Shown: positions 5,344 to 61,885, counted from the stretch's first letter. The stretch is DNA of 64,000 bases from Barthelona sp. PCE (GCA_040285745.1 JAUFOR010000005.1:248001-312000), one strand, 5' to 3'. Notes: generated from the letters alone by a model not told the origin. A program made the numbers and translations.

Positions 5344-5397
5344 TAAATATATATATATGATTTGTTTTCTCATTTAAATCCATTTAGAAAAAATTTT

Positions 5398-7077
5398 ATG
5401 ACAGACAGGGCTCCAAAATTGGCATTTTTTGCAATATACAATCCATCCTTTGCAGGAACAGAGGATTTAGAAAAGGATAAGCAATTACAAAAAATTCTCT
5501 ATCATTACCCTCGGAATTTTGACTTGGATACAGTTGACATCGATAGTTTAGATAAAATAATCGATGTGGACCCTGTTACTCACGTGAAGAATATTGACGG
5601 GGATGAGTTAGTTGAACCCGATCTTTTGTTAAGGCGTCTCAACTTTATGCAAGCTGCATCAACGTTTGCGTCATCGTTCCATACGATGGATAGTGTTAAT
5701 TATGTCGAAACATCGAACTATTGTTATGTAAGCATAAACCCTGAGGGAGATTTCCACTTCATGATGTGCTATTCATTGGGTGTATATGAGAACGAAAAAT
5801 GCCGCTACGAACTGAATCATGTTCTTGTGCAGAACTATCTCAATTATCTTTACGAGTTATGCATTCTTAAGTATGATATTCTGCAACGGCAGAGGGCCGG
5901 TTTGATCCATGACAAGTTAGTTTTCCTTGACGACGTGCTCGATGGATTCGCCCTCAACAACCACTCTCTCAAATGGCTGTTCCAGGGTATCACTTATCAT
6001 TCCGTTGTCAAGGAAAATTTGTTTAAGTTTCAGCGCATGTGTTTCTGCCTGAATGACATCGTTTACCAGAGCCTTAAGAATAACTACATCCGAACAAATC
6101 CTTTCTATGATGTTTTTATTGAGATCGTGAAACCTTTGGAGTACGTACTTATATTGCGCAACTCTAAGGTTTTGTTCACAAACCTTGACAACAGCGATCT
6201 CTTTACTAACTTTGCCAACGTTCGCCACATCATGACTGCCGAACTGAGCAAGTACAGCGATGCGTACCGTGGGTTTTTACTCAAAGGCGACTACCCGTTG
6301 AAAGTGAGCGTGTTCCTTCGTGGAAGCCAGTACACTCTGCTGCTGTATATGTTGAAAGAAGGGGCAGACCTGAACGTTATATGTTTATTTATCAAGAGAG
6401 TCGTGATGGTGGAGCCAATGGCTGTTCAAATCATTGAGGAGAAGCTATCGCATTATCTTGACAACTCATCTGTTGTCTTTGGGAGCATTCCCAGCCAGGC
6501 TCCACCATTAAATATCATCGGATCGTTAATTATTTTCAACTCAGTCAACAAAAGTCTTTGTTGCTTCAACTGTGATCGAGATCTTCCCATAAGCGTTCAG
6601 TCGCGCATTTATGAGATTCAAGCACAAATATTGAAGAGCACAGCGTATCTGGAGAGCGAAGAATACCGCGTTCTTTTGAGCCGGTTCAACGCGATTATTT
6701 CGGAGTTGAAGACGAAGTATTTTGGGCTGCTCAGCGAGGAGTACAGGCATCTTGTTAGTGATAACGAGGAGGAACAGGCAGCGTTTGTGCTCCTCAAGAG
6801 AGAATACGACGTTATATTACATAAGCTACAACAGTTCCGTTATGCTGCAAGATATAGCCGGATCATTGATGAAGAGAACGCCGCTGTAAGCTTCAGACAC
6901 AACCTTTACGACTTCTCGGCGAGGTACAGTGATGGATCTGTCGTCATTGCTCGTTGCGTTTTTGGTCGCATGGTTTACTATGTTCTTCAAACAGAAAGCT
7001 CAATGTTTGAGGCTATGGAGGCGTTTGAGCGGATTATCGATAAAACCCAACTGAGCCGCGTATTTCTGTTCCGCTAA
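5398..7077 (+). CDS. CCZ1: Vacuolar fusion protein CCZ1-like (longin domains, Mon1-Ccz1 Rab7 GEF)
   Basis: N-terminal LAFFAIYNPSFAGTED...KILYHYP matches the CCZ1 FFIYNP...KILFYHP signature; first ATG at 5398. Confidence 0.72.
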   Translation: MTDRAPKLAFFAIYNPSFAGTEDLEKDKQLQKILYHYPRNFDLDTVDIDSLDKIIDVDPVTHVKNIDGDELVEPDLLLRRLNFMQAASTFASSFHTMDSVNYVETSNYCYVSINPEGDFHFMMCYSLGVYENEKCRYELNHVLVQNYLNYLYELCILKYDILQRQRAGLIHDKLVFLDDVLDGFALNNHSLKWLFQGITYHSVVKENLFKFQRMCFCLNDIVYQSLKNNYIRTNPFYDVFIEIVKPLEYVLILRNSKVLFTNLDNSDLFTNFANVRHIMTAELSKYSDAYRGFLLKGDYPLKVSVFLRGSQYTLLLYMLKEGADLNVICLFIKRVVMVEPMAVQIIEEKLSHYLDNSSVVFGSIPSQAPPLNIIGSLIIFNSVNKSLCCFNCDRDLPISVQSRIYEIQAQILKSTAYLESEEYRVLLSRFNAIISELKTKYFGLLSEEYRHLVSDNEEEQAAFVLLKREYDVILHKLQQFRYAARYSRIIDEENAAVSFRHNLYDFSARYSDGSVVIARCVFGRMVYYVLQTESSMFEAMEAFERIIDKTQLSRVFLFR

Positions 7078-7985
7078 GAGCAGTCCCACCCAAAAGCTAT
7101 GTGATTAGCTTGTTTTGTGTGATGCTCTTCAATGGGAAAATCGTTCCAATGTATGAGAAAGTTGCCCCATCCGAGGTCGCCGAACATATAGTCCTGGATT
7201 TCACTGGCCCCAAGGGATACGAACAATTCGGTAACTTCATTCCAGGTTGTGGGTACACATGCTAATCTGTTCCTGATCATAAGACAGCGCGGTTCCTGGT
7301 CCCAATTGCCGATTTTGCTGAAGAAAACTGTTCCATAGTGGGAATCGAAACCATGTTCCTCAAGATAGCTTTGAACTACTCCCACGTATTTCTGTGCTTT
7401 GTCGCTTATCCCGGGCCACAGAGATGATACATCAGAATACATGTCAGCGTATGGCAGCATTGTGTCCTTCACGCTCCATCCAATGATTTGCTTTTGCTTG
7501 GTTTTTTCAATAAGACGGTATCGTGCAACAACGTCCGGATCGTAATTGTAGCATGGATTTCGGATATCGTCTTGGCTGTACACAACAACCAGCACACCAC
7601 AATCTTCGTCGTCGTAACCGCTGTTGTATTGCGAGCTTTCAACCTCTGAGTGATTGGCGAATATCTGAATTAAGGCTACGTCTTCTGGTATCTTTGAGCG
7701 AAAGGCCTCGGGAAGGTGAGCCGTGTAAAGTTGAAGAAGCATTTGATATAGATCATGATTTGATGATGGAATACATCCTAGTCTTGTAGCGTAAAGATCT
7801 GGAATACCGCCAAAGCGGCTTAATCCATGTCCGTTTCCTTCAATTTCCTCACATTTCGGGATTAAATACTCATGGTATGTTGAAAGGAAGTACTCCTGAA
7901 TATTTTCAGGAACAGTTTCTTGATTCATCAATTCTTTGATATCGTTCATGTTTAGACGCTGCTCATCAAATGGGAGGGCTTGCAT
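7074..7985 (-). CDS. YwqG/DUF1963 family protein
   Basis: SRFGGIPDL near the N-terminus, LLQL, and C-terminal YMFGDLGWGNFLIH...WDCS typical of DUF1963. Confidence 0.8.
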   Translation of the reverse strand: MQALPFDEQRLNMNDIKELMNQETVPENIQEYFLSTYHEYLIPKCEEIEGNGHGLSRFGGIPDLYATRLGCIPSSNHDLYQMLLQLYTAHLPEAFRSKIPEDVALIQIFANHSEVESSQYNSGYDDEDCGVLVVVYSQDDIRNPCYNYDPDVVARYRLIEKTKQKQIIGWSVKDTMLPYADMYSDVSSLWPGISDKAQKYVGVVQSYLEEHGFDSHYGTVFFSKIGNWDQEPRCLMIRNRLACVPTTWNEVTELFVSLGASEIQDYMFGDLGWGNFLIHWNDFPIEEHHTKQANHIAFGWDCS

Positions 7986-8314
7986 AGTTGAAGAAACTTT
8001 TGAAAAGTAAAAAGCCCAATGTTAAAGGGAAGGGAATATTTTGCAGGTGATTTCACTGTGCATTTGATTTTAATACTGCAATAAAAGTAGCTTGTAAATG
8101 TATGTTCCAGAAACATAGCTGAAGAATTGTAGTATTGAATAAATAGTTAAGAAAAGTTGTTTCTTGTTTAGATATCAATGTTGTGGCGAATTATCATTGT
8201 GAAATGTTTTTCAGTTGCATATATAGAGAATTTATTCATATACAAATACGAAACAGTCAAAAATATTCTATCTTTTACATTTTCATCCTTACACTTGGTA
8301 TTCATACACTTACA

Positions 8315-11086
8315 ATGGCGTACAATTTGCTAGAGGGTTTTTATGACATTCTTTCCATGGACAAGGAGGTTCAGAGTGCAGCAGCATTGGATATGGTAAA
8401 TTATCTTGTTTCTCTTATTGATTTGGACAACAAAGATAATGAAGCTGATGGTGAAAATGTCAGTAAGTACGATAAATTTGATATTCTTGCTGGATTTGAC
8501 GATTTGCATAAAGAAGTTCAATACACACTGAAAAGATTAGTTAAGGGATTAAATTCAACAGGCTTCAGGGTGCGTAGTTCATACGGTTCAGTTTTGAGCC
8601 TTTTCTTTACAGTCTACCGCTCTACACTTGGATCATTTATTACTTTTGCTAAAGAGACCATTTTCAAGAGCGTTCAATCTCATAGAGAGCAGAAAAACGC
8701 TGTTTTCGGTCTCCTTATTTCAATATTATGCTTTCTTAACATCGAAGAATCATTTGAGGATAGCGAGATGAACGAGAGTGATGTTGGTATTGTTGAGAAC
8801 TTATTTCAAACCGTAAAGCCACTAATGGCGACCTTCAACTCAACAAATTCGTTCCTCAGCTTTGTCTTTATCAAGATGTTGTCAGTATATTCATTTTTTG
8901 TCCCACACTTTGTTGAGGCATTCAAGATCACCCCAGAATCAATGAATATCAATACGCTTGGTATTGTACTGGGTGTACACAAGGCGACTGGGCACCCGGC
9001 GCTTGAAGCATTTGTTGAGAAGCTGCCTATCAACCGCGGTCTCTTTGATTCGATGGTGAAGCACGGAAGCACAAACCATCCTGTTTACAACTTCATTGAT
9101 GTCTCACCTGAGTTCATCGGTGAATTTGCTGCATTTTGTGAGGAGCAGAATCAGCAAAAGGTGTTATTTATGATTCTCAGCACCAACATTGATTTGTTCA
9201 ACAGTCACCCGAAGTTATACTTGAGGGATTTGAAAAATGTTGGCGTTGAGCATTTTAAAGATGAGCAGTTTGTCAGCCTCATCCAATTAGCGTTTGAGGA
9301 CGCGTCCATCGGCGTACTACTACTCAACAGCGCCTTCAACGCTCGCCTCGCCTCACTTCCTGTGGATGTTATTGATGAGCTCATCAGCTGGCTATTAAGC
9401 GAGCATCTCTTCCATAATAGCGCACTTACGATTGTATTTGAGCTGCTTAAGCTTGAGTCAGCAAGCAAACTCCGCATTGACGTGTTTGTCCTTTTCCTTG
9501 TGCTGGGATTCTTCCAGGGCGGAACGAGCTTCTGGCTGTCTAAGCTTGGCATTGGGGTCGAGACAGAGGGATACGACAATATTGATGATGCATATGCATT
9601 GGGCTTCCTCAAACGAATGTTTGTATTCATCGACGAGAAGAACGTGGATGAGTACTTTGATGTTCTCGCAGATCTAGCTACATGTCGCCCTCTATTTGTT
9701 GATGGCGAGGACCTTGCACTTTGTGTCGGTCTTGCTCGTGATGAGATTGTGCAGGGGGATCTAATGTTCTTCTTTGCACTTTTAATGGCAGTCGTCGACG
9801 CGTCAATGGCAGAGATCCTGCACCAGATGGTTCACATGAAGACGCTTGTTTGTGAGGAGACAGCAAAGATTTCTCTTCTTCTGCTTGGTGCGGATTCGTC
9901 GCACGTGCGCCGCATCGTTGAGACTTTCTGGAAGCAGAACGGCAAGAAAGCCACAGCCGAGATCGTGTCAACTCTGATTGAGTTCTTGGTTATCGACCCA
10001 TCAACGATCCAGGTCGAGGACACTGATATTATGAGCAAAATGGAGGTTGTTGATTCTGAAGAGGAAGAGGAGACAGAGATGGAGGAAGCTGAACCCGAGG
10101 AATCCCTTATTGACGCCCTTAACATGGTTGAAGGCAGCGGACGCGTTGAAGGCGAGGACATGTCGTTTGGCATCGACTCCGACGAGGAGGAGACACCGGA
10201 AGACGTACTTGCAATCGAGAAGGTTCTTGCAGAGATGGCACGTCAGAAGGAGAGACGCACCATATTCGAAGCCAGTGGAAAGCATTTGCGTCACCGCGTT
10301 CTGTCACTTTGCACATGCATTATCCATTCGGTTGACTCGGAGAACGAACTGGCATACACTCTTTTCATGCGCTTGTTCGAGCTCGGTGTTGGGCTTGACC
10401 ACTCTAAGCGAGATGCTCTTCTGGCCAGCATTCTCGTCAACGATCTTCAGTCAGTTCCCGTAAAGAGCTTATGGAAGCGCTTCGATGAGGACACACTTGA
10501 GGCAGACCGCGAGCGTGTTGTTACCCTGATGGGTAAATGTTCGAACATTGAGATGGGTCAACTTGGATGCAAGCTCATTGGAGCGATGCTTCGTCTTTCT
10601 CTCGAGCAAAAAATTGAACACATTGGTCAGATTGCACTTTGGATTTATGAAGTCGCTCTTGATGCATTCACTGTGACAACAAGTTATCTTCGTTACTCAT
10701 TGCTCAACGTTATGGCTTCACAATTGCCTTATTTCAATACATATCTGTGTCATGCATTAGGGTTCATTGTGTTTTCTGTTGACGAAGACGGCAACAACAT
10801 TCTTTCAAATAAGAGTTTTGCTGATAGCCTACGCTTGTTCAAGACATGCTTAATTTCACATCGTAATCACTGGAAGAGTGACTCTAAGCTTATGGAGCCA
10901 CTTGTTCCCGCTATGGTAGAGGCCGTGAAGAAATTCAATGTGCTCGGAAAGAAGTCAAAGCAGAAGAAACTGATTGCCGGTGTTCTTCGTTCGTTTTTCA
11001 GCATGTCGGCATTTGTTGGTTTTGACGCAACAGCAATCTCATCTGAAATCGATGCAAAGGTTATCAGAGCATACAATCTGGTGTAG
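8315..11086 (+). CDS. MYBBP1A: Pol5/MYBBP1A-like nucleolar ARM protein
   Basis: YTLKRLVKGLNSTGFRVRSSYG resembles the Pol5/MYBBP1A YALKRLIRGLxS motif; acidic tract about two-thirds along. The likely start is ATG 8315. Confidence 0.7.
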   Translation: MAYNLLEGFYDILSMDKEVQSAAALDMVNYLVSLIDLDNKDNEADGENVSKYDKFDILAGFDDLHKEVQYTLKRLVKGLNSTGFRVRSSYGSVLSLFFTVYRSTLGSFITFAKETIFKSVQSHREQKNAVFGLLISILCFLNIEESFEDSEMNESDVGIVENLFQTVKPLMATFNSTNSFLSFVFIKMLSVYSFFVPHFVEAFKITPESMNINTLGIVLGVHKATGHPALEAFVEKLPINRGLFDSMVKHGSTNHPVYNFIDVSPEFIGEFAAFCEEQNQQKVLFMILSTNIDLFNSHPKLYLRDLKNVGVEHFKDEQFVSLIQLAFEDASIGVLLLNSAFNARLASLPVDVIDELISWLLSEHLFHNSALTIVFELLKLESASKLRIDVFVLFLVLGFFQGGTSFWLSKLGIGVETEGYDNIDDAYALGFLKRMFVFIDEKNVDEYFDVLADLATCRPLFVDGEDLALCVGLARDEIVQGDLMFFFALLMAVVDASMAEILHQMVHMKTLVCEETAKISLLLLGADSSHVRRIVETFWKQNGKKATAEIVSTLIEFLVIDPSTIQVEDTDIMSKMEVVDSEEEEETEMEEAEPEESLIDALNMVEGSGRVEGEDMSFGIDSDEEETPEDVLAIEKVLAEMARQKERRTIFEASGKHLRHRVLSLCTCIIHSVDSENELAYTLFMRLFELGVGLDHSKRDALLASILVNDLQSVPVKSLWKRFDEDTLEADRERVVTLMGKCSNIEMGQLGCKLIGAMLRLSLEQKIEHIGQIALWIYEVALDAFTVTTSYLRYSLLNVMASQLPYFNTYLCHALGFIVFSVDEDGNNILSNKSFADSLRLFKTCLISHRNHWKSDSKLMEPLVPAMVEAVKKFNVLGKKSKQKKLIAGVLRSFFSMSAFVGFDATAISSEIDAKVIRAYNLV

Positions 11087-15967: not shown

Positions 15968-16109
15968 TTGTAAATTCTATGTTGTTTGAGCTATTTTATT
16001 GCTCATTCGGTCAGTTCATAGGCTGCACCACTAGTTTCAGAGACTTTTTTCGTGATTGATTATGTTGTTGTTGAAATTATATCCTATTACTAACTTTAAT
16101 GCAAAAGTG

Positions 16110-17975
16110 ATGAATTTACCACTGTCACAGGGGATACCATACTCTGCAAAAAAGAGAACAGCATCAGCAGTTGAAAACTGGTCAATTGAAGAGGGATGGA
16201 GAATTCCAGATGGTACCAGGCGTGGAATTGACGAGGCTAGCAAGCGAATTTCGGTTGGAAAGGGGAGTTGGATTGCATCGCGTTATGAATGTCTCGAGAA
16301 GGTAGGAGTTGGTACTTTTGGAATGGTAACTAAGGTTATCGATCATTTCTATGTACATAAGTGTGAAGTTGTGCAAGGACAGGCCAAACAGCGTGTCATA
16401 GAAATCCCAAATAACGGTATTGTTGGTTTAAAACTTAGTAATTCGTGTCGCACACTTTTAAATGAATTTTTAAGTGTTGCACATCTTTTTGTGGATTTAT
16501 TTGCATCGGAAGCGTTCCACCTAACACACATTGTTGGCTTTTCAATTGTTCCACAGTTGCGCAACGAAGAGACAATGAGTACATTTGTTCTGCCACCGAG
16601 TCTTGTGCAACACAGTGCAACCACCGTTTCTCCAACCTGTCTTGCCGGGTTTATGAAGTCTGTACCGCACACATGGAGGTCGCTGCCCGACACAAGGATC
16701 CATAACTTCCACGCTTTATTCAGTGACATCCAGCGGAGTGTAGTTGATCTTTCTGCTGTGGTGCTCAAGTACCAGTTTTGTACAGAGGCAGATATTCTGA
16801 AGCATGTCTATCAAGAGCGGATGGCCGATCCGGACTACAAATACTTTGGCGCCTTTACGCTTCACCAGATTCAGATGACCCTCATTGCAAGCAATTTCTT
16901 CGACTATGCGGGTATTTACTGTATGACGCTCGAGTTCTGCTCCTGTAATATTCACCAGTTGCAAAAGGCAATGGGTGGGTTTCCTCTCTCGGCAATCAGG
17001 ACGCTCGCACCGCAGATGTGCCACGCCATTCGTGGGCTGCGCAAAGCGCGGATAATTCATTCAGATATCAAACCGGAAAACATAATGCTTTCTTTGGAGA
17101 ATGTTTTGCCTTTGTCTCTTCCAGTGGACAAGACGGTTGTCGTTCTCAGCGAGATGCTGCGCAGCGATGCATCGGTGTGGGGGCGCTTAAACATAAAGGT
17201 TGTCGATTTCAGCAGTGTGGTCGACGTTGCTGGTACCAGCGGATATCATCAAACACGTCCGTACCGAGCTCCTGAAGTTATTCTTGGCTGTCCAATGTCG
17301 CATAAGTCTGATATGTGGTCTCTGGGATGCGTTCTTGCTGAGATGTATATTGGAAAGCCGTTGTTTCTGGCAGCAAACTATTTGGAAACGATGAGGCTCA
17401 TTGTTGAGACGGTGGGGCCGCTTCTAATTCCAAAAACACCGGCGCACTCATCTTTTTGGGCAAGACCAGAGTGTAGACATGCGCTGATGCATCCTGACCG
17501 AGGATTGAGTCATTTCTTCTACCGTGCACCCAGCGGTGATCTCATCCTCCCGCCCACGTTTTTATACGGTTACCAGGTGAAAAAAAGTAGACACCAAGAC
17601 AATTTGTGCTATTATCAGCCTGTTGATGGTGTTAAAGCCAAGTCAACATACAGAGTGCCTGTTGTGATAGGCATTGATTACTGGAATGCTTATCTTGAAC
17701 GGTACGGGATGAAAGAGTGGACATGTGTAGCCAGCACCACATCTGAGCCTGGAAAAGTGTTTTTCGTCAACTCACGCATTAATGAGAGCATGTGGTATCC
17801 GCCGTGTGTACGTGCGCTTACGAAACAGATCACAGATGTACATGTTGCACGTAATCAGCTCGATTCAACACATGAGCTCGTTCTCTTTTGTGGTTTTTTA
17901 CATTCACTGCTGGATCTTGATCCAGATAAGCGTATACGTATATGGGATGCTTTCCGAGATCCGTTTCTACAGTGA
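16110..17975 (+). CDS. Divergent DYRK-family CMGC kinase with a large N-lobe insert and a WW domain in the CMGC insert
   Basis: GVGTFG, VGLK, IIHSDIKPENI, DFS, YHQTRPYRAPEVILG, DMWSLGCVLAEMYIGKPLF, LLDLDPDKRI; first ATG at 16110. Confidence 0.85.
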   Translation: MNLPLSQGIPYSAKKRTASAVENWSIEEGWRIPDGTRRGIDEASKRISVGKGSWIASRYECLEKVGVGTFGMVTKVIDHFYVHKCEVVQGQAKQRVIEIPNNGIVGLKLSNSCRTLLNEFLSVAHLFVDLFASEAFHLTHIVGFSIVPQLRNEETMSTFVLPPSLVQHSATTVSPTCLAGFMKSVPHTWRSLPDTRIHNFHALFSDIQRSVVDLSAVVLKYQFCTEADILKHVYQERMADPDYKYFGAFTLHQIQMTLIASNFFDYAGIYCMTLEFCSCNIHQLQKAMGGFPLSAIRTLAPQMCHAIRGLRKARIIHSDIKPENIMLSLENVLPLSLPVDKTVVVLSEMLRSDASVWGRLNIKVVDFSSVVDVAGTSGYHQTRPYRAPEVILGCPMSHKSDMWSLGCVLAEMYIGKPLFLAANYLETMRLIVETVGPLLIPKTPAHSSFWARPECRHALMHPDRGLSHFFYRAPSGDLILPPTFLYGYQVKKSRHQDNLCYYQPVDGVKAKSTYRVPVVIGIDYWNAYLERYGMKEWTCVASTTSEPGKVFFVNSRINESMWYPPCVRALTKQITDVHVARNQLDSTHELVLFCGFLHSLLDLDPDKRIRIWDAFRDPFLQ

Positions 17976-20477
17976 TTTATCGAAAAATGAATCACTGAAC
18001 TCCTCTTCGCTCAACACCTCCTCCACATCACTGTCCATTAGGAAGTTATCGAAGAATTCCGACTGCGCTTTGGGTTGATAAGCAAGCAGCAGTGTAGGCA
18101 TAGTTTCAGATTTTGAGATTGTGGAGTTTGTAAAACGACGACCAGTAAAGATATCTGGAACAACACTGAATACATTTTTTGATGTTTTGAAACCCTTGAG
18201 TTTGAAAGCACCTAATAAATTAATGCTGTATTCAGTGACTGGCGTCTCCATATCGATGTTGTTCTGGACCCATTGAGTCACGCTTTTCGACACCAAGATC
18301 TGACCACCCTCTGCCAGCGATGAAATGCGAGCCGCTAAGTTGACATCAGTACCGAAAAAGTCAAGGCGGCGGTTCACAGTGTTCAGTTTAACCTTGGGGT
18401 TACCAAAAGACAGACCCATCTTGATACGAGGACCGCGCCAGATGAGACGGCGTTGGTCATCGTACATTTCTCCGTAGCGCGGCTGGTTAAGCAGCTTATC
18501 GTGCCAGGGGGCAAGTAACAAAGCTGTTTGAACATAAATGGCAAAGTCTATTGCACGGGCAGGGTTGGAGAAAGCAACCATAAACGTTTCTCCCTCAACC
18601 TTGACCTCGTATCCACCGAACACGTGATGCTGTAGAGCTTGGCGGAATACGTCGCAGTACATCGAAGCTACATAGTCCATGATGTCTGCGTGGCGCGTCC
18701 ACAACAAGGCACCTCCATCGAGCTTCGCAAACAGGATGCACACGTCACCGTATGGTACACTTGGTTGTGTGTCATGGGAAAATGACATGAAACAGAGAGA
18801 TGACGTTGTGGAGCGCGTTAGTAATGTATTTTGCCCACCTACAGGCTGTATCATGAGGGTTTGACTATTCATGGACGTATTAACCATGTTGGAGAACACG
18901 TCAGATGACGAAGAATTGAGGGGTTTGGGGTTGGTTAGGACTTCCGTCGAAAACTCAGCCAGCGAGTGTATCATGACAAATGAAGAGTCGATAGCCTGCT
19001 GTAGGAGCATGTTGAAGATGTCGTTTTGATACGCGTCAAGGCCCTGGTTGATCGCCAAGTTAACAAAGAGCAGTCCGCCATCGCTGTCGCCGCAGGAAAT
19101 TAAGTTCTGCGAGAAAGACTCGATCTTTGAAAAAATGGTAAAGGGGTGGGAGACCATACTGGTCAGAACGATGTTGCCTTCACCGTCCAACGAATCCAGG
19201 GGTATCTCCTTCATCAGGATGAGAGCACCGTCGGTTCGAATCCCGCCAACGGCATAGATGCGGTAGTAGTCTTCTCCCACCTCTGATGGCATCAAGAATT
19301 CGCCAAGCGGGAAGTACGCTGCCTCATGCACAACATCGATAACCTTCAGTTCATTACTCTCTATATCAAGGGATTCAACAAGATTTCTGAACCTTTGGGC
19401 TGCCCACCGGTTGAAAACGATAGCAGCAGGCATTCCGTCGATCTCCTCAATGATCTTTAGCGATTCGCCAAAGCGCGTCACCTTTCCAGTGATTGATGTA
19501 GGCGAGAAGGGCACGCTGAAGAACTTCATGATAGGGTTCGATGGCCACATTGGCGCAAAGATAATGCCATCATACGTGAATCCCTTTTGGTTTGCAATGA
19601 ATCCGACACCACTGTTGCTGGACGCAACAGTGGCACCAAATACTTGTACAGAGTTGCCGTACACCTGTCTAAGTGCAGCAATGCCCGCCTCCTCAACGCC
19701 CTCGGTGCTGAAAACCATAACGAATTCAGGTGGTTCGCTAATGGAAACACGAGATCTCTGGGCGGTTGTGATGAGGGTATCTGTCAGCGTGAGTCCCTCG
19801 TCGATGCCCGCGCTGAGGTCGCGCAGCTCCACGCTGTGATTACTGTGTCTGTCATGGATGGCAAAGACTCCAACTGAGTTGGGTTCTGAAACGACACCAT
19901 TGTTTGTCGAAAAGCGATCGTAAGATGTCGTAATGATGAATGGGCAGTCAAGCATCTGGGTGAAATATTTGTGAAGCGACTGAATGGGGAATCCAATTTG
20001 GACGACGAAAAAAACAAAGGTTGGTGCAAAAAGAAGAGAGTTATGAATACAAGTAAGGGCTAGTCTCAGATCTTCTGGGAAGGACTCTTCTGAATCAAAT
20101 TCGAAGACGTGGCTGACGTTATCGACATGCTCCTTCGTCAACCCGCATTTTGGATCGACAGTCGTGAACGTCAATGCCTCGTTCTTACCTGCAAGCAAGC
20201 TCTCATATACGAGAAATTGAAGAGCATAGCTGTGCGAAACAACGTTACCTGATGAATGTCTGAGTAGAACAGGGCAACCAAAATGGTTTGAAACAAGGCG
20301 ACGCAGTTGTTGTGTTGACGTGAAAGGATCTATTGAAAACACCCCTTCTGCTCCTTCATGTTGAACTATTACATCAACTGTATTTGAGAAAAACGCACTC
20401 CTAGTTCTAGGTAGATTGTTAGATAACTCCGGTCCCTGAGATGACCAATTCAAAACAGATGTAGCTTTTTTCAACAT
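17967..20477 (-). CDS. PB1-like + FIST (N and C) + class III nucleotidyl cyclase fusion protein
   Basis: Cyclase: GGYEVKVEGETFMVAF, GPRIKMGLSFG, RLDFFGTDVNLAARISSLAEGGQILVS. FIST-like: VMVFST, VFGATVAS, KVTR...IEEIDGMPAA, FPLG, DGALIL. No TM segments evident. Confidence 0.8.
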   Translation of the reverse strand: MLKKATSVLNWSSQGPELSNNLPRTRSAFFSNTVDVIVQHEGAEGVFSIDPFTSTQQLRRLVSNHFGCPVLLRHSSGNVVSHSYALQFLVYESLLAGKNEALTFTTVDPKCGLTKEHVDNVSHVFEFDSEESFPEDLRLALTCIHNSLLFAPTFVFFVVQIGFPIQSLHKYFTQMLDCPFIITTSYDRFSTNNGVVSEPNSVGVFAIHDRHSNHSVELRDLSAGIDEGLTLTDTLITTAQRSRVSISEPPEFVMVFSTEGVEEAGIAALRQVYGNSVQVFGATVASSNSGVGFIANQKGFTYDGIIFAPMWPSNPIMKFFSVPFSPTSITGKVTRFGESLKIIEEIDGMPAAIVFNRWAAQRFRNLVESLDIESNELKVIDVVHEAAYFPLGEFLMPSEVGEDYYRIYAVGGIRTDGALILMKEIPLDSLDGEGNIVLTSMVSHPFTIFSKIESFSQNLISCGDSDGGLLFVNLAINQGLDAYQNDIFNMLLQQAIDSSFVMIHSLAEFSTEVLTNPKPLNSSSSDVFSNMVNTSMNSQTLMIQPVGGQNTLLTRSTTSSLCFMSFSHDTQPSVPYGDVCILFAKLDGGALLWTRHADIMDYVASMYCDVFRQALQHHVFGGYEVKVEGETFMVAFSNPARAIDFAIYVQTALLLAPWHDKLLNQPRYGEMYDDQRRLIWRGPRIKMGLSFGNPKVKLNTVNRRLDFFGTDVNLAARISSLAEGGQILVSKSVTQWVQNNIDMETPVTEYSINLLGAFKLKGFKTSKNVFSVVPDIFTGRRFTNSTISKSETMPTLLLAYQPKAQSEFFDNFLMDSDVEEVLSEEEFSDSFFDKSL

Positions 20478-23224: not shown

Positions 23225-26179
23225 ATGTCTAGCGTGATAACACAACCTCCTTTGATTACAAACCAGTCTATCAAGGAGAAAATTCCGGTTGAACAAGATT
23301 TTGAGAATGAAGAAGATTTTGACAATGAGGAATCAGTTTTTGCTTTGCGAGATCTCCAAAATGAGATATTTTTATTAAAAAAAGACATAAAGAAGATGAA
23401 TAACCAATGCGAATTTTTGAAGGGTCAGTTAGAGCGTCGCACAAAAATCATGCGTGTACAGAGATCAGAATACTACAAGCAGCTTATGGCATTGAAAGAA
23501 ATGTTATATCAGCGCATGAGATTGGGAGAGGATTACCAGCCGGACCTTTTGCCGAGTTTCGGAAAGGATCTTAACTTTGAGAATGCTAACCAGGGTGAAG
23601 AGTTCAAGAAGAAGGTGTCCAAGCTGGTTAAAGAGCAGACAAGGAAGCTTCAGGAGCGTCATAAGCAGAAGGTGAAAATGGTTGAGGAAAAGATGCGGCA
23701 ACAAGACGAGGAAAACAAGAAAGAGATTGAAAAGCTAACCAAGGAGCACGAAAACGCCGCAGGAGCAAAGAAAGAGCTGGAGCTTGAACTGAAGAGAGCG
23801 TTGGACGAGTATGAAGCTGATGTAAGCAGCATTACTGAGAAATATGAGGGGCAGATCACAGAATTACAAGAAAGCCGTGACAAAGAGGTGTTACAGTTAA
23901 CTAAGGATCTTGCTCGGCTGGAAGATGATTATGAAGAGTCTACGACGCAAATTGCCAAGCTTTCAAAGCTGAACGACGACTTGGACTTGGAGGTGGATTT
24001 CGTGAAGAAGGAGCTTGAAACCAAAACATCTGAGGTCCAGGAACAGAGAGAAGCCATCGAGAGACTCAAGAACTCATCACAGAACTCAACCGAGAAAATT
24101 GACGGACTCACAAAGGAGCTAGACTTTGTCAAGAGTGATTATGACACGTACCGCGATACGACGCAGGAGACAATCAAGTCCCTGGAGTTCGACCGAGATA
24201 GTCTGATGAAACGTGTTGATGCAAAGCGCCAAGAGTGCGAGAAGTTGATGATAGAACTTGATCATGTGAAAAGCGAGGGAGATTCACGCATGCGTGAAGT
24301 ACAAGACCAGTATGAGCGGGCGATGCGCGAGAAGGAGCAGCAAGGTCAGGATACTGAATTGAAGATTAACCGTTTAGAGCGTGATCTTTCGGCGGCAGAG
24401 GAAGAGCTAATCAAGCTGAGAGCTCATATTCGCGATCTCGAAAGCCAGCTCGAGGACGCCACAGAGAATGGTGCTGCAGCACAACAGGCGTTGGAAGATG
24501 AACTCAGGCAGTTGAAGGAGGAGGAAACTGAGAGGCTAAAGGAAATTGCGGCTCTGAAAGAGGAGCTGCTCCAAGCCACCCAGTCTGTGCATGAGACCAA
24601 GGAGCTGGCGCGCCAGGCATCTCAACGGGACATGGAGCAGGAGAGCACCATCATCAGTCTTTCACAACAGATTGCCGACTTGGAAGAGTCCATTAGCAGC
24701 AGTGACGCGGATTTCCAGGTGCTCAAGGGCGAGAATGCTCGCCTTCTAGACCTTGTTGAGCGCATCAAGGCTGAGCGCGACGAAGCAATCGAGCAGGCAA
24801 AGGCAAAGACGAACATGGAATATGTGGCTGAGCCTTTGGATCTTGATAATATCGAAACACACGACATGATGACGTCTATGACGCCGCGCGATATGGACGA
24901 GACCGGAACAATTATGTCTTCCCGCTCATCTTCAAAGCTCACACAGTCCATGTCAAGCTTCCCCCAGATCACCCCCAGCTCCGATCAGTTTATTCGCCAT
25001 GAGCATGAACCTGCCGAAGTATTCATGGATGGTGCCACCACTAACCGCTCAGAGAGCCAGATGTCCACCCACTCGTTCGGAATGGACACAACTGACATAT
25101 TTGGGCGTTTCTCACGTCCTGGTTCAAAAGGTAGTCGCCCTGGTAGCAGTCGCCCCAAGAGCAGCGCATCCCGCCCCGGTAGTAGCAGTGGTCGCCCTGT
25201 ATCCCGTGAGGGTCGCCCTATTTCGCGTGAAAGTCGTCCTGGTAGCAGTGGTCGCACTTCTAGCAGGCAACATAGACCAACTGGTGTCAACGTATACACT
25301 GAGATCACTGATGCAGATCTCGAATATTTGCGTTCAGCAGCAGTTCCAGCATTTACAGATCCGGACAGTGCCTTTGCCAAGAAGCACCAAGAGGTGAAAC
25401 GCCGTCTCGATGATGTCGAGTCGTTAAGCACAATGGTGCAGCAGGCGACCAACCTTGAGAGACAGGTCATAAAGGCCGAATACCAGCTGTTGCGCGAGGA
25501 GGAGCGAAGCAGGCAACTGGATGTTGAGCGTCGTGCACTTGAGGCAACAATTCGCAGCACACAGACGCACGAGGACATCCAGAAGTTGTCCATCTTTGAC
25601 AGATTGGCGGCTCGAGGAGATGAAATGCGCAGACGTATCAATGACCGCAAGTCACAGCTTGAGAGGGAGCGTCAGCGCAACCTTGAGTTAGTGTTGGCTG
25701 CTGTCAATTTATTGGTGAAGCCGGTGATTCCTGCCGTCGATCCAAATGACACCTTTGTGGCAGATTCCGCGTTGTATGGAACTTCAATGGGAGCGATGGA
25801 CAGTACCTTCAAGGCCAATGATAAACAATACACAAAGAAGGCAATTTCCTTGTTAGAGACAGATCCGACGCGTCCGCCGTCACGTGGGCCAAGCGCTGCT
25901 TTGCTCAGCGAAGAGGTGCCACGTGCTATTAAGCCACCGTCATCGCCTCGTGTTGCGAAAACACCCACCAAATCAAGGCCGCTTTCACGTAGCTCACCAA
26001 GTAGCAAACGCAGAGATCGTTTTGACCCAAGGCGAACACAGGTCAAGTCGGCTTCCAAACTGAACAGGAGTGACTTTGCGCGCTTGTCATCACCTTCACG
26101 ACAGGAACGTCGTAGTGCTCTTATGCGAATTCTTAGTCAGGGAGCGAATGAAGGACAGAGTCAAAAGAACACACACTAA
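23225..26179 (+). CDS. Long coiled-coil protein with SRPGSS low-complexity repeats
   Basis: 984-aa ORF with E/K/Q-rich heptads; degenerate SRPGS/SRP repeats at about 25111-25260. Confidence 0.85.
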   Translation: MSSVITQPPLITNQSIKEKIPVEQDFENEEDFDNEESVFALRDLQNEIFLLKKDIKKMNNQCEFLKGQLERRTKIMRVQRSEYYKQLMALKEMLYQRMRLGEDYQPDLLPSFGKDLNFENANQGEEFKKKVSKLVKEQTRKLQERHKQKVKMVEEKMRQQDEENKKEIEKLTKEHENAAGAKKELELELKRALDEYEADVSSITEKYEGQITELQESRDKEVLQLTKDLARLEDDYEESTTQIAKLSKLNDDLDLEVDFVKKELETKTSEVQEQREAIERLKNSSQNSTEKIDGLTKELDFVKSDYDTYRDTTQETIKSLEFDRDSLMKRVDAKRQECEKLMIELDHVKSEGDSRMREVQDQYERAMREKEQQGQDTELKINRLERDLSAAEEELIKLRAHIRDLESQLEDATENGAAAQQALEDELRQLKEEETERLKEIAALKEELLQATQSVHETKELARQASQRDMEQESTIISLSQQIADLEESISSSDADFQVLKGENARLLDLVERIKAERDEAIEQAKAKTNMEYVAEPLDLDNIETHDMMTSMTPRDMDETGTIMSSRSSSKLTQSMSSFPQITPSSDQFIRHEHEPAEVFMDGATTNRSESQMSTHSFGMDTTDIFGRFSRPGSKGSRPGSSRPKSSASRPGSSSGRPVSREGRPISRESRPGSSGRTSSRQHRPTGVNVYTEITDADLEYLRSAAVPAFTDPDSAFAKKHQEVKRRLDDVESLSTMVQQATNLERQVIKAEYQLLREEERSRQLDVERRALEATIRSTQTHEDIQKLSIFDRLAARGDEMRRRINDRKSQLERERQRNLELVLAAVNLLVKPVIPAVDPNDTFVADSALYGTSMGAMDSTFKANDKQYTKKAISLLETDPTRPPSRGPSAALLSEEVPRAIKPPSSPRVAKTPTKSRPLSRSSPSSKRRDRFDPRRTQVKSASKLNRSDFARLSSPSRQERRSALMRILSQGANEGQSQKNTH

Positions 26180-28311: not shown

Positions 28312-30384
28312 TTAACAATGTTCAATATTTATCACAAAGGCACCTGTATCTGTGCTCTCCCTGAACATATTCATTTCAACATATTCTGCACGTGTAAGCC
28401 ATGTATCAAGAGGAATATCATGTATTTCGATGTTCAAAATATGAGTGTCGTTGAATTCGTAACGACGGTGAATAATCATACGATCTACTACTGTGAATAT
28501 GGTGAGGCTATTTTGCGCTTGGAAACAATCACATTCCGACACATCGAAGTTGTCTTCATCAAAATCAACAATTTTGGTGAGTCGGCACTTTTTAGTGATG
28601 CGGAAGATACCAACATTCAGCAAAACAATCCTTGGGGCTAGGAATCTAATGAAATAACCAATGTTGAACTGTATCTTTAGATTTTGTTCAGAATCACACA
28701 CAAAAAAGTGCTTTTTCTTAGTTGGTGAAATTGACAATTCTGTCGAGTACGGGTTAATGTGCGCCTTTACGTTATCGGTAATCTCACGTGTTAGCTCCCA
28801 CACATTGTTATTTAGCTCATAACATTGAGTTGTTCCTCCGCACTTCAACAAAATTTTCTTCTTATCATAATGGTATATCACAGGGGTATGTCTACGAAGC
28901 TCAGTAATCTCCTTTGTTACATTTGTTTCCAAACAAGTCTCAAATATTTGTATCACTTTCATCTGCTCTTCGGCATTCCATTCAGAACAGCACCAATACA
29001 TGTGCTCGTCTGTCAGCAACAGTATGCTTTCATTAGACCTGAACAATACTCTATACAATGGAAACACACCGTCCTTCAGGGATTGGACGTCAAATAGTTG
29101 GACTTCTGTGCAATCCATTTCCACGCCCCGCTTTATTTTGCAAAGGTGACCATGTAGCTTGATGACTGTATTATTAAAGTGAAACTGCTCAAAAGACGGT
29201 TTAAGCTTATGGTAGTATACAACGTTCTCTGCAAGACTGAAGATGATTTCACAGTTCCTCGTCTTGAAAAATGTATGTTTAGCGAACATACCAGTTTGAG
29301 ATTCACTTAAATGCCTGCACTCAACCACAATATCATCAATCGAAAAATATTTGCTATAGAGTGAGAGATGGTTATTAAAAGTACCAAACATCCGGCTCAA
29401 ATACATTCTATGATCAAATTCGGGGGTGAACCGGGGAAGTGGAGCAACCATCGTTCTTGGTAACTCAAAATCAAATCTGAGAACTTCATTTGCGTCAAAT
29501 ACACACAGGTGAGAAAATCTGCCTGATTTAAAGGTGCACATGGCTTGCCTGCGCTCCAAAGAGAGATACCATAGCTGAAAATCATCCAAACTGTTAATAT
29601 TCAAATCACATATGCTCGGAAAGAATTCAAAAAAGTCAATGCAATGCCAAGCTTCCAAAGTGTCCGTGAACAGAATGCACAAGGTTGTTACGGGCATTTG
29701 ATCAGAGGCATAGCAGACGTTAAAATGCATAGAAGGCCGAACGGCGTTGATATCGTCCGACAATGTAAAGTTCACTTCTAATATCCGTAATCGTCCACGA
29801 TCAATGGCTTCATTGTCCATTTTCGCGAACTTTAGCATTCCCCTTTGGAAATAAATCAAAGTCTTGGAGACTAAAGTGGAACAAAAACCATCGATTTCAA
29901 AAGTAAAATGACCGTCTTGCATTTCCCCATCTTTCCAGCGAATTACACTGATATTATTGTATGTAAACCCATAAGAAGTGTTCTTATCAAGAAATATAGC
30001 TCGCATACTTCTTGGATTGATATAGTGAAAATTTTGAACGTGAGAAAAAATGAGATTATCATCCATAACATCAAAAAATGCAACTTTTTTAACACAAGTG
30101 TACCTAAAATCTCCAAAATCCGTGGCGTAAAATGTATTTTCGTCAAACAAACATCTTTTAATGTAAAATCCATTTTTAGGCTTGCCCAATAAATCAAATA
30201 GATCAACAGGTAAGGTTTTATATCTGGTTAAATCAATCCCAACTGCCAAATTATTACTGTTCAACAGAAAATCGTTAGAAACTGGCTTCCTTTCTACCTT
30301 TTCAATTCTAAAACCATCAGAATCAATTGGAGTACAATAAAAGCCCTGATCAACTGGAAAACCGTTATCTATACGGCGAGGCAT
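28312..30384 (-). CDS. Hypothetical 690-aa beta-rich protein (possible lineage-specific family)
   Basis: Long intact ORF rich in F/I/V/C short strands; no recognised motif. Confidence 0.75.
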   Translation of the reverse strand: MPRRIDNGFPVDQGFYCTPIDSDGFRIEKVERKPVSNDFLLNSNNLAVGIDLTRYKTLPVDLFDLLGKPKNGFYIKRCLFDENTFYATDFGDFRYTCVKKVAFFDVMDDNLIFSHVQNFHYINPRSMRAIFLDKNTSYGFTYNNISVIRWKDGEMQDGHFTFEIDGFCSTLVSKTLIYFQRGMLKFAKMDNEAIDRGRLRILEVNFTLSDDINAVRPSMHFNVCYASDQMPVTTLCILFTDTLEAWHCIDFFEFFPSICDLNINSLDDFQLWYLSLERRQAMCTFKSGRFSHLCVFDANEVLRFDFELPRTMVAPLPRFTPEFDHRMYLSRMFGTFNNHLSLYSKYFSIDDIVVECRHLSESQTGMFAKHTFFKTRNCEIIFSLAENVVYYHKLKPSFEQFHFNNTVIKLHGHLCKIKRGVEMDCTEVQLFDVQSLKDGVFPLYRVLFRSNESILLLTDEHMYWCCSEWNAEEQMKVIQIFETCLETNVTKEITELRRHTPVIYHYDKKKILLKCGGTTQCYELNNNVWELTREITDNVKAHINPYSTELSISPTKKKHFFVCDSEQNLKIQFNIGYFIRFLAPRIVLLNVGIFRITKKCRLTKIVDFDEDNFDVSECDCFQAQNSLTIFTVVDRMIIHRRYEFNDTHILNIEIHDIPLDTWLTRAEYVEMNMFRESTDTGAFVINIEHC

Positions 30385-30491
30385 ATTGAAAGGGGTGGAA
30401 AGAATGTTAATAATTTGTGATAAATAAGAGACTTTATATGGTCTTAAGGTGACACATTTTACACACGTATGAAATTAATGTTTTTATTGTG

Positions 30492-31385: not shown

Positions 31386-34244
31386 TTACATTAGAGGGCC
31401 GTTATTCTTGATAATTTGAACGTCACTCATTAAAGATTCAAGCTGACTAGAAAGTAGTTTCTTGGTTAACGTTAATTCTTCGCCAAGAACATCAAGTTCG
31501 CGTTCATCTATCAGTCTGGTTTCGTCTAACACGCGGGAAAGATGTGATTCAATTGGTTCTTCAATAACAGGAGGCTGAATAACCTCATTGGGAGTGGTCA
31601 AGTCTGCGATTGAATCCTCCATTGGGTGGTTTGGAGTGGAAAAACCAAAGGTCTTAGTCTTATGTAGATCCTCGACTGTGTACAGAAGCTGATCTGTGAT
31701 TGCATCTAATGAAATGCGAACATCAGAAAGCTTTGTACTTGTATCGTTCTTGAAGTTATCTACGTCTGTGCTAAGTGCCGTCAGGTGCTCCATTAATGCG
31801 CCGTTAAAGTCCAAGAGACCTCTGAGCTCATTAACATGATCCAAACTTGTATTCATAAGACGGCCATTACTGTTTTCGAATTCCTTCATTCTTTTCTCGA
31901 AAAGTCCGCATATATCATCTAGTCGCACCGAAACGATGTCGTTCGTCGTTTTGACAATCTCAGTTGTATTACGCAACTCGTCAATATGATCTACAACGAG
32001 GGCCAGCTCATCAGGAGAGACGAACGGCTGTGGCTTCTCGGCAAGGGTCATTCTGTCTTCAACCTCAGCTATTGCTCTCTCGGCACCCACAATGCGCTCG
32101 CTACATGATGCCTCCACTCGAGCCACAATGCTTGATGAGACGCTCTCAATGAGATCCTGTGTTTTGGACAATACACCATCGATTTCACCGCGTAGTGTCT
32201 GCTGCGACTCTTCTACAACGTTCTGGAACGAAGACTTGAGGCTTTCATCGAGTTCCGAAATCTTCTGTGTGACGCTGTCATACTTCTCGTTCAAATCCTC
32301 AATGTTCGACTGAATCTCAATATCAGCCTTACCAGTGTCACGTATAATCTCAACGGGAACGGAAGTAGGTTCTCTATTCTGCTTCTCAACCGTAGCCTCG
32401 AGTTCTTCTATGCGAGATGCAAATTGTTGGATTGTTTGCATAAGAAGTGTAGTTGTCTCCGTGTCAATTGTCTTTGCCTGCTTCTTAGGTGTACTTGGCA
32501 TACTTTCCCTGATTGTTTGCATTAAAGTTGCCTTTACCTCATTAAGCTGGTTGTTTGTAGCTGTTCCAATATTTTCCTTAACCTCTTCGATGTTTTTCTT
32601 CATTTCATCAATTAAATCAGCCTTTATCTCTTCAAGAATCTGCTCTTTAATCCTGTCGCCCATCTCAGCAGCTACTTGTCCTTTGATTTCAGCGATAACA
32701 TCGCTAGAAATCACATTCTTCTTAATACTGCTCTCCTCGTCACGATGAACTGGCACAGAAGTTGCGGGAATAGAAGGCATAAACGCGGAAAAGTCAATTT
32801 TGTTTATGTGAGCAGCAACACAATTCTCAACTTCTATCTGCAAATCAGAAAAAATTTCCTCTGAGTCTACAGTAGGAAAGGCGTTCTCCAACACACTCAA
32901 CCGCTTTTGTACATCAGATAGATCAGGGGAGGGACGTGTTGGCGAAAGATTCAAGTCGTCGCTCTCCACAGATGCCAATCTTTTCTCTAAAGCAGAGAAG
33001 CGCTTGGTGATGTTGTTAATGTTCTCGGTGTTAATGGACTCAAAAACACCCATGATCTTATCAGCGACGTCTCCCAGTTTGGCCTGGAAAACATCAACGT
33101 GAACTCTCTTCTTGAGCTCAGGTCCAACACCATACACAACCTCACTAAGCTCATCAATGCGACTTCCAATCTTCGCTCCCAAGTGGTCTTCAACGGCGGT
33201 GACGATTTGATCGCGGCTCTTGCTAACAGCGTCCGTCGATGCCTTTGCGCACTGGTTGACCAACTCAGATCTGTCGAAAGTGACCTGCTTGACTCGCTCG
33301 AGGATCCCCTGCTGTGTTGTCTGCAGCTCCTGCAGCTGCAACTGCATTCGGTAGAACAGGGTTCTTGCATCGCTGCGCGCTGAAATCGGAGTCCCAATGT
33401 TCTCTTCCTGTGTGAAAGGAGATATGGGCGAGGATGGGGTCACTGACTGATGAAGGGGACTGGGCGTTACGGGGATACTGGCCGTCCTGGGTTCTTCTTC
33501 AAGTTCAACCGTCTGATCATCCACTGGAATATCATAAACGGGTTCTTCTACAGGTTCTTCAGCTTCAAGTTCTCTAGATAAATTGTCGAACGCCGAACGC
33601 ACGTTCTCATGCTCTTCTAACACGTTCTTTGGGGATTCTACAGTGGGGTTCAACACCTGCCTTACTCTAAAGTACTCGCGCATTGCGAAGCGCAGATACA
33701 CAACCGACACCACCAGCTTGCGCGAGCTAGTCTTCTTTTTTGGTAGATAAAACCCGTTTTGAATGTGAGGAATCATTTCATCATCAAAGATGTACTTGGA
33801 TAGCTTCTCGCAAATGCTCACACTCAAACGACGTTCACGCAGAAAATGCACGTGTTCGCTGGCAGCTGACCCAATGAGATGGTGGTTATGTGTATAGAGA
33901 CGTCCCCAGACTTCTAAGAAGAAGACAATCGTCTCCATCGAATCGTGCTGGTTCAAAAATAGAGAGAAAAGTTCGACCTCGGTGTCCCTATCCTTCCATT
34001 CAAGTGTGGATTGGATCAATCGTTGTACAGTTTTCTCAAATTCTTGTTTCTGTGGGTATTGACCACGGAGATAGGCTAAAACATTTGGTGGAAAGTGTAA
34101 AGAGGAGTCTATTTTCTCCAAAAGGCTCTCTGGATTTTCATATGTGTATTTATACACATTGTAAGACAAGTTAAGAATAAATTTCAAATCGCTGTTCTCG
34201 TTTATCACGGACTGTGGTTGTAAGTGGATCTTAAAGCGCTTCAT
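31386..34244 (-). CDS. Hypothetical protein: helical N-terminal domain plus long coiled coil
   Basis: 952-aa ORF. The frame stays open upstream of ATG 34244 without another ATG, so the start is uncertain. Confidence 0.8.
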   Translation of the reverse strand: MKRFKIHLQPQSVINENSDLKFILNLSYNVYKYTYENPESLLEKIDSSLHFPPNVLAYLRGQYPQKQEFEKTVQRLIQSTLEWKDRDTEVELFSLFLNQHDSMETIVFFLEVWGRLYTHNHHLIGSAASEHVHFLRERRLSVSICEKLSKYIFDDEMIPHIQNGFYLPKKKTSSRKLVVSVVYLRFAMREYFRVRQVLNPTVESPKNVLEEHENVRSAFDNLSRELEAEEPVEEPVYDIPVDDQTVELEEEPRTASIPVTPSPLHQSVTPSSPISPFTQEENIGTPISARSDARTLFYRMQLQLQELQTTQQGILERVKQVTFDRSELVNQCAKASTDAVSKSRDQIVTAVEDHLGAKIGSRIDELSEVVYGVGPELKKRVHVDVFQAKLGDVADKIMGVFESINTENINNITKRFSALEKRLASVESDDLNLSPTRPSPDLSDVQKRLSVLENAFPTVDSEEIFSDLQIEVENCVAAHINKIDFSAFMPSIPATSVPVHRDEESSIKKNVISSDVIAEIKGQVAAEMGDRIKEQILEEIKADLIDEMKKNIEEVKENIGTATNNQLNEVKATLMQTIRESMPSTPKKQAKTIDTETTTLLMQTIQQFASRIEELEATVEKQNREPTSVPVEIIRDTGKADIEIQSNIEDLNEKYDSVTQKISELDESLKSSFQNVVEESQQTLRGEIDGVLSKTQDLIESVSSSIVARVEASCSERIVGAERAIAEVEDRMTLAEKPQPFVSPDELALVVDHIDELRNTTEIVKTTNDIVSVRLDDICGLFEKRMKEFENSNGRLMNTSLDHVNELRGLLDFNGALMEHLTALSTDVDNFKNDTSTKLSDVRISLDAITDQLLYTVEDLHKTKTFGFSTPNHPMEDSIADLTTPNEVIQPPVIEEPIESHLSRVLDETRLIDERELDVLGEELTLTKKLLSSQLESLMSDVQIIKNNGPLM

Positions 34245-38910: not shown

Positions 38911-39018
38911 TACGATTAATGTTTTTGAGCTCTGGAAAAATGTGAGAATTTCAAATGCAGATTGTCCGGTGAGATATGAGTAATCAACACTATAAACATC
39001 CATAAAAGCATACTAAAC

Positions 39019-61800: not shown

Positions 61801-61885
61801 ACAACTCAATGTATGAGAAAAGGTTGTGTTTTTTGTTTGCAAATTCAAGTAATGTATTTTTCGCAAAACGAGATATAAGTGCGAT

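Follow-up and report, generated by a model that had tools for sequence, protein, structure and literature searches.

A PB1-like, FIST and class III cyclase protein of Barthelona sp. PCE as a candidate C2-like half of a heterodimeric cyclase

The stretch of the Barthelona sp. PCE genome analysed here (GCA_040285745.1, JAUFOR010000005.1:248001-312000), referred to at its full length of 64,000 nucleotides as the window, carries at 17967..20477 on the minus strand an uninterrupted open reading frame (ORF) that begins with ATG and encodes 836 amino acids followed by a stop codon. The encoded protein, hereafter the query, is predicted to join a PB1-like domain and a FIST sensor region to a class III nucleotide cyclase domain in which both metal-binding aspartates are replaced and the remaining catalytic residues are intact. 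On balance, and with modest confidence, the query is read as the C2-like subunit of a heterodimeric class III cyclase, with a paralogue of the type of P0026, a relative carrying the mirror-image pattern of losses, as its most likely partner.

The catalytic domain, of the GRESAG4-like type, covers residues 566-789 (18111..18782, minus strand, as are all query features below) and is recognised by Pfam, phmmer, profile and fold comparison. The Guanylate_cyc model (PF00211) matches residues 575-762 with an E-value (E) of 5e-17 and 62.5 bits against a cut-off of 21.9, and is the sole Pfam match of the ORF. The nearest solved sequence by phmmer is Trypanosoma brucei GRESAG4.3 (1fx4_A, E 9.9e-18), while the family profile, A1, reaches 1fx2_A among the Protein Data Bank (PDB) sequences at E 5.8e-46. 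An AlphaFold model of the query built with a 40-sequence alignment has a predicted local distance difference test score (pLDDT) of 77.8 and a predicted template modelling score (pTM) of 0.75; on this model VIA-align superposes the domain on 1fx4_A with Z 25.4 and a root-mean-square deviation (rmsd) of 2.9 Å over 209 aligned residues, and Foldseek gives E 1.5e-13. A first reading of the DNA, made from the sequence only, had placed a class III cyclase in the C-terminal part, and both the Pfam match and the fold agree with it.

The phmmer alignment to 1fx4_A runs without gaps through both metal sites, setting 'ilfakldgg' on 'liftdiess' and 'evkvegetfmvaf' on 'evktvgdsfmia'. Here and in the family alignment, K585 (codon aag, 18723..18725) occupies the first metal-aspartate position and E630 (gaa, 18588..18590) the second, exactly at the codons where the sequence-only reading had located the changes, within LFAK and EGET. 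The family columns, drawn from 353 aligned cyclase-domain segments of 154 proteins, hold aspartate in 220 of 301 filled cells at the first position and in 241 of 322 at the second. The same two alignments place the substrate-specifying pair at K626 (18600..18602) and D706 (18360..18362) and the transition-state asparagine and arginine at N713 and R717 of the NLAAR stretch (18327..18341), all four intact as had been proposed. Also kept is K761 of 'KLKG' (18195..18197) on the dimer arm, in a column with lysine in 160 of 272 filled cells; its phosphate-binding role is presumed from mammalian C2. Of the residues expected in a self-sufficient, homodimeric cyclase, the query thus has the lysine, aspartate, asparagine and arginine, and carries K585 and E630 in place of the two same-chain metal aspartates.

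Class III active sites span a head-to-tail dimer interface, to which one chain gives the two metal aspartates and the other the lysine and aspartate together with the asparagine and arginine; mutants of homodimeric cyclases that lack the aspartates and mutants that lack the asparagine and arginine complement one another. With both metal aspartates gone, the query would be without catalysis on its own. In a heterodimer it would supply K626 and D706 for adenine recognition, N713 and R717 for the transition state, and K761, while a C1-like partner would supply the two aspartates and the magnesium ions. Pairing of the query with P0026 would give one complete site converting adenosine triphosphate (ATP) to cyclic AMP (cAMP) and one dead pseudo-site, in which K585 and E630 would face L, K, N and H. 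A homodimer of the query would contain two sites without metal ligands, and a homodimer of P0026 two sites without substrate and transition-state residues. The most likely partner is a paralogue of the P0026 type, in which the PB1-FIST-cyclase architecture of the query recurs.

Relatives were taken from an exhaustive HMMER search of 1.84 billion representatives, which returned 5593 matches at E<=0.001; the best 150 were considered, and 11 of these share the N-terminal region with the query. Word-index searches made with the query and with profile A1 gave the query itself and bacterial NB-ARC/cyclase proteins and missed even the members of A1, so family size cannot be read from them. The closest full-length relative among them is P0026, a protein of 895 amino acids entered at NCBI as a hypothetical protein of Barthelona sp. 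PCE. Residues 33-782 of the query align with residues 5-762 of P0026 in a single stretch (HMMER, E 2e-59), and BLASTP finds 25% identity over 796 columns (E 2e-65), with the same residue pattern in this alignment. With the two metal positions written first, followed by Lys, Asp, Asn, Arg and Lys, the signature of the query (P0001) is K E / K D N R K and that of P0026 is D D / L K N H E. The latter thus keeps both aspartates, and four of its five other residues are gone, namely K, D, R and the phosphate lysine. The two proteins are likely paralogues in one genome.

A complex of query residues 555-800 with P0026 residues 548-775 was predicted with ATP and two magnesium ions included and without use of the supplied alignments. 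The catalytic domains score 0.88 against 0.01 for the best of three controls; since cyclase dimers have already been solved, this score shows likeness to the known dimer arrangement and not binding of this particular pair. Of solved complexes, 51 of 78 reach the mark used for such scores, as do 2 of 108 mismatched pairs; for eukaryotes the figures are 39 of 65 among solved pairs without a like older complex and 2 of 126 among unrelated pairs. At least 94% of the contacts recur between runs, and the pLDDT of the partner is at least 85. Confident predicted contacts set query residues 706, 713 and 717 against P0026 residues 571-577 and 610-612, which flank its two aspartates.

Half-site domains are common in the protein set, mostly within multi-domain chains. 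With C1-like defined as keeping both aspartates and not the asparagine and arginine, the 337 domains remaining after split matches were merged comprise 140 full, 52 C1-like, 34 C2-like and 111 degenerate domains. The 68 single-domain proteins divide into 57 full, 6 C1-like and 5 C2-like, and the query is the only one of the 68 in which both metal positions are changed and K, D, N and R are intact. C1-like single-domain FIST-cyclases include, besides P0026, P0058 (D D / G S K L N) and P0061 (D D / T T K H H). The signature is full in P0043, P0064, P0079 and P0066 (D D / K D N R K), and in P0072 (D D / K D N R W) it is full on the six canonical positions.

Both halves also occur in one chain. 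P0110, of 1592 amino acids, carries two Pfam FIST and two cyclase stretches; its first unit is C1-like (D D / K E A T A) and its second, like the query, C2-like (A G / K D N R R). P0110 thus unites the two kinds of FIST-cyclase unit in a natural fusion. P0084 is a more degenerate counterpart with the same double layout of two FIST and two cyclase stretches. The family with PB1-like, FIST and cyclase regions therefore holds homodimer-type, C1-like, C2-like and fused members, and the partner with two aspartates that the sequence-only reading had called for has its counterparts in the complementary relative P0026 and the natural fusion P0110. Two separate observations concern these relatives. A SAM domain (residues 1395-1447, E 1.2e-6) is inserted within the second cyclase domain of P0084. 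The full-signature proteins P0043, P0064 and P0079 begin MGSSLC, MGGCFS and MGTCIS, starts absent from the query and resembling what we take to be N-terminal acylation signals; they suggest that some members of the family are anchored to membranes or to the flagellum.

The region between the N-terminal domain and the cyclase, residues ~117-512 (18942..20129), is a divergent FIST and FIST_C sensor region by its relatives, hidden Markov model (HMM) and fold. Direct Pfam matches to FIST and FIST_C (PF08495, PF10442) were absent at E<=1 for the whole protein and at E<=10 for residues 117-568. An HMM trained on this region in eight relatives, with the query left out, matches the query ORF at E 3e-58. 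In the relatives that align end to end, Pfam passes FIST, FIST_C and Guanylate_cyc for P0026, P0058, P0066, P0043, P0064, P0079 and P0138, and FIST and Guanylate_cyc for P0072; P0061 has a sub-threshold FIST_C match only. In the Atlas model of the query, 388 residues (117-568) align to a bacterial FIST/FIST_C cluster with a template modelling (TM) score of 0.84 by the target row, and residues 126-570 of the alignment-based AlphaFold model superpose on FBXO22 (8ua3_C), which we take to be a carrier of FIST domains, with Z 16.6 and rmsd 4.3 over 277 aligned residues by VIA-align. Foldseek of the model against the PDB listed only cyclases, the FIST and PB1 fold matches coming from VIA-align, and profile A1 found no FIST or PB1 chain among the PDB sequences. 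The earlier description of a FIST-like middle region accordingly holds through homologues, HMM and fold, and lacks a direct Pfam match. The description of the protein as soluble also stands, since its most hydrophobic 19-residue stretch (147-165, Kyte-Doolittle 1.92) is modelled with confidence as one of the beta-strands of the FIST fold; this stretch aligns to a non-hydrophobic one in P0026.

The N-terminal residues 31-109 (20151..20387) are predicted to form a PB1-like beta-grasp domain, modelled at pLDDT ~90. All three VIA-align rows on this region are PB1 entries, with rmsd 1.7-1.8 Å over 79-80 residues: 2o2v_B (Z 12.9, rmsd 1.7, 79 of 82 aligned), 4y5o_B (Z 12.9) and 2g4s_A, the PB1 domain of NBR1 (Z 11.5). 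Neither Pfam PB1 (PF00564) on residues 1-125 nor phmmer against the PDB sequences gave a PB1 match at E<=10. A PB1-like N-terminus had been proposed from the sequence, and it is upheld by the predicted fold and the homologues and finds no direct Pfam or PDB sequence match. The proposed order of domains, from PB1-like through FIST to cyclase, is correct, with the first two assigned through homologues and predicted fold. Between the FIST region and the cyclase lies a Ser/Thr/Asn-rich linker, residues 514-571 (18765..18938), with pLDDT below 50, and the protein closes with an acid-rich C-terminal tail, residues 790-836 (17970..18110), with pLDDT below 50 for residues 787-836.

PB1-PB1 pairing depends on an acidic OPCA motif or a conserved basic lysine on strand 1. 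Judged by eye, strand 1 of the query (VDVIVQH) has no lysine or arginine and the stretch after strand 3 (RHSSGNVVSHS) no acidic residue; the equivalent stretch of P0026 has four acidic residues. The PB1-like domain also occurs in family members with a complete, homodimer-competent signature and is therefore not a heterodimer-specific device, so the proposal that PB1 acts as a specific pairing module is not borne out. In this region the query and P0026 have 31 of 79 positions in common, compared with 13 of 83 for P0026 and its tree sister P0058, a closeness that fits one lineage for both the query and P0026.

Several observations weigh against the assignment of the query as a heterodimer subunit, beginning here and continuing with the rivals below. 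The window contains no second cyclase, a single one of 418 six-frame pieces giving a match, and in the complex prediction the heterodimer is indistinguishable from the homodimer. In a tree of 14 FIST-cyclase units, for which the fused P0110 and P0084 were each cut into two halves, the query takes an unresolved position at the end of a long branch (2.04 changes per column) and does not join the C2-like half of the fused proteins; this placement gives no order of duplication. Of 52 conserved columns in its FIST region, the query departs from the family at 23, more than any other of nine sequences, compared with 16 of 51 in P0026 and 6-13 in full-signature members. At the two best-conserved FIST His/Cys columns (7 of 9 sequences each) the query has F163 and N473 where P0026 has H and C. 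Such departures are also expected from simple decay.

Together with the loss of both metal aspartates, the long branch, the most degenerate FIST region of the family and the replaced histidine and cysteine all favour a dead pseudo-cyclase, which would serve as a homodimer or scaffold, for example in nucleotide binding or regulation, or as a dominant-negative that titrates active cyclases, and would never form a productive site. Degenerate cyclase domains are frequent in the protein set (the 111 of 337 above), and the fold matches include 6yii_A (Z 14.0), a solved class III cyclase-like protein whose function is limited to ATP binding. The pattern of change nevertheless speaks for a half-site subunit: all five C2-side residues are kept and both C1-side residues lost, random loss of two of the six canonical residues would hit both aspartates in one case out of 15, and the closest relative among the best 150 of the 5593 matches has the mirror loss. 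The ORF is also intact within a very compact genome. The dead pseudo-cyclase is held to be unlikely, though it is the most serious of the rivals.

A subunit with another partner is more improbable still. Here the query would form a half-site with a different cyclase of the same genome, for example a multi-domain cyclase with an unpaired C1-like domain. C1-like domains are frequent among the related proteins (the 52 of 337 above), many of them lying in multi-domain chains, and P0026 is a likely rather than a certain member of the same genome. Nor is there an orthologue of the query among the best 150 of the 5593 matches, which leaves the C1-like P0058 and P0061 without a visible C2-like partner and likewise counts against the favoured pairing. 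Against a different partner, P0026 has the whole architecture of the query and the most similar PB1 region, and in the P0110 fusion both units are FIST-cyclases, neither being a cyclase of another kind.

An active homodimer of the query, with metal bound by the non-canonical E630 and by D587 two residues after K585, deserves very little weight: glutamate at the second position is chemically capable of binding metal and may still do so, D587 lies within 'FAKLDGG' and single-domain relatives with a DEKDNR signature exist, which also tells against the heterodimer, but the ungapped alignments place the lysine and not D587 on the first aspartate, at an unchanged distance to the conserved tryptophan, and a lysine in the metal site would speak against metal binding.

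The C2-like subunit paired with a P0026-type paralogue thus remains the preferred reading, and regulation of its site would run through the FIST regions. Little is known of what FIST-FIST_C binds, as stated in a review (PMC8846402). Should the conserved histidine and cysteine of the family matter for ligand binding, the sensing half of the heterodimer would be P0026 and not the query. The sequence-only reading had suggested heme-based sensing of nitric oxide (NO). This was set aside as unsupported: the query has no match to the NosP model (NCBIfam NF041558) at E<=1, P0026 reaches 17.7 bits against a cut-off of 450, and the conserved His/Cys columns are F163 and N473. NosP differs further in being a stand-alone FIST protein. 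A more specific history is tentative and rather doubtful, namely that a duplicated PB1-FIST-cyclase gene split one active site over two chains, one copy retaining the aspartates and a conserved FIST region and the query the substrate and transition-state residues with a degenerate FIST region, giving an obligate heterodimer in which one sensor and one catalytic site work; this would independently re-invent the alpha/beta logic of soluble guanylyl cyclase (sGC) on an uncharacterised family of eukaryotic sensor-cyclases.

The resemblance to sGC lies in the arrangement of two chains, each with a sensor-type N-terminus and one class III domain, that would form one full site and one pseudo-site. 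In sGC, one chain contributes the aspartates and the other the asparagine and arginine. Catalytic domains of sGC are among the fold matches of the query (3uvj_A, Z 19.8 by VIA-align; 4ni2_B by Foldseek). The query differs from sGC in lacking H-NOX, PAS and coiled-coil regions, its N-terminal part being PB1-like and FIST instead, and in specificity residues of the K/D type, for ATP, rather than the E/C of sGC, for guanosine triphosphate (GTP); sequence similarity to sGC chains is distant, with family-profile matches at E 3e-4 to 0.03. Pfam finds no H-NOX domain in the query, whose N-terminal region folds as PB1 and FIST. The earlier comparison with the sGC beta chain thus survives for the catalytic logic, by analogy, and falls away for the sensor, as the H-NOX domain is missing and heme binding unsupported.

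In mammalian adenylyl cyclases, C1 gives the two aspartates and C2 gives K, D, N, R and K. The division of labour in the membrane enzymes is thus the same, and the signature of the query matches C2. P0110 repeats this C1/C2 arrangement in one chain with FIST units. The mammalian enzyme differs as a single membrane protein regulated by G proteins, whereas here each half is its own soluble chain with its own sensor. The receptor-type GRESAG4.1 and GRESAG4.3 of T. brucei provide the nearest solved catalytic domains and share with the query an insertion between the domain halves, yet they sit in the membrane as receptors, show the complete D D K D N R set in the aligned chain and have neither FIST nor PB1. 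A bacterial Atlas cluster of 64 members, with Elusimicrobiota as its commonest phylum, shows the same order of FIST, FIST_C and Guanylate_cyc (feature score 0.85, of value as a lead only), and its representative, at 663 amino acids, is shorter than the query. Chytrid RGC1/2 and NeoR, from a eukaryote of protist grade, are class III cyclases in which one catalytic domain is fused to a sensor and activity requires two paralogous chains to pair as a heterodimer (PMC7655827); they differ in their membrane rhodopsin sensor and cyclic GMP product, the query being soluble with a FIST sensor and K/D residues. The query belongs to none of the sGC, membrane adenylyl cyclase and chytrid RGC/NeoR families.

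Class III sites divided between two chains have precedents in sGC, in the membrane adenylyl cyclases and in the chytrid rhodopsin cyclases, and the query, if read correctly, would add another, apparently independent case. A description of a FIST-linked class III cyclase was not found in the literature searched, a search outside which most subscription journals lie. The homodimer-type, C1-like, C2-like and fused members, standing side by side, form a natural series for catalytic asymmetry after duplication, and the PB1-FIST-cyclase family offers a handle on FIST sensing in eukaryotes.

The cyclase gene lies in a dense setting. Its 3' end overlaps a convergent protein-kinase ORF (16056-17975, plus strand) by 9 bases (17967-17975), and the 64 kb of the window, with a guanine-plus-cytosine (GC) content of 41.6%, hold 31 ORFs of at least 200 amino acids on both strands, often with gaps under 100 bases. 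Several neighbours overlap or lie less than 100 bases apart, for example 5362-7077 (plus) with 7074-7985 (minus), leaving almost no space for untranslated regions. Products of neighbouring ORFs are eukaryotic by Pfam and include a homeodomain protein, Sec16, an Alg9-type mannosyltransferase, a CEP76-like protein and an SLC12 member. The Barthelona sp. PCE genome, as reported in PMC11316075, has 10.2 megabases in 8 contigs, 40.3% GC and 5064 proteins, and is the smallest known for a free-living eukaryote; the strain was later renamed Microbarthelona vorax, as given in PMC13087550.

Other features of the window are recorded for themselves. Seven ORFs of 683-984 amino acids have no Pfam match at E<=1e-5 (8183-11086, 23225-26179, 28312-30384, 31386-34244, 47193-49499, 53419-56130 and 59995-62046), a high proportion of long genes without annotation, given how small the genome is. 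The ORF at 44748-47120 (minus strand, 790 amino acids) matches models of a right-handed beta-helix (E 2.6e-33) and of NosD periplasmic copper binding (E 2.2e-16), which are unusual for a eukaryote. The 10-mer telomere repeat unit reported for Barthelona sp. PCE occurs in one copy, at 30435-30444 (plus strand) in the spacer between two minus-strand ORFs; this is probably chance, 8 of 100 shuffles also yielding one match. Two tandem genes of the Na/Ca-exchanger family, 37345-39003 and 39019-40629 (both minus strand), are separated by 15 bases and are 43% identical over 491 residues (E 5e-124), an identity that points to an old tandem duplication retained in a very compact genome.

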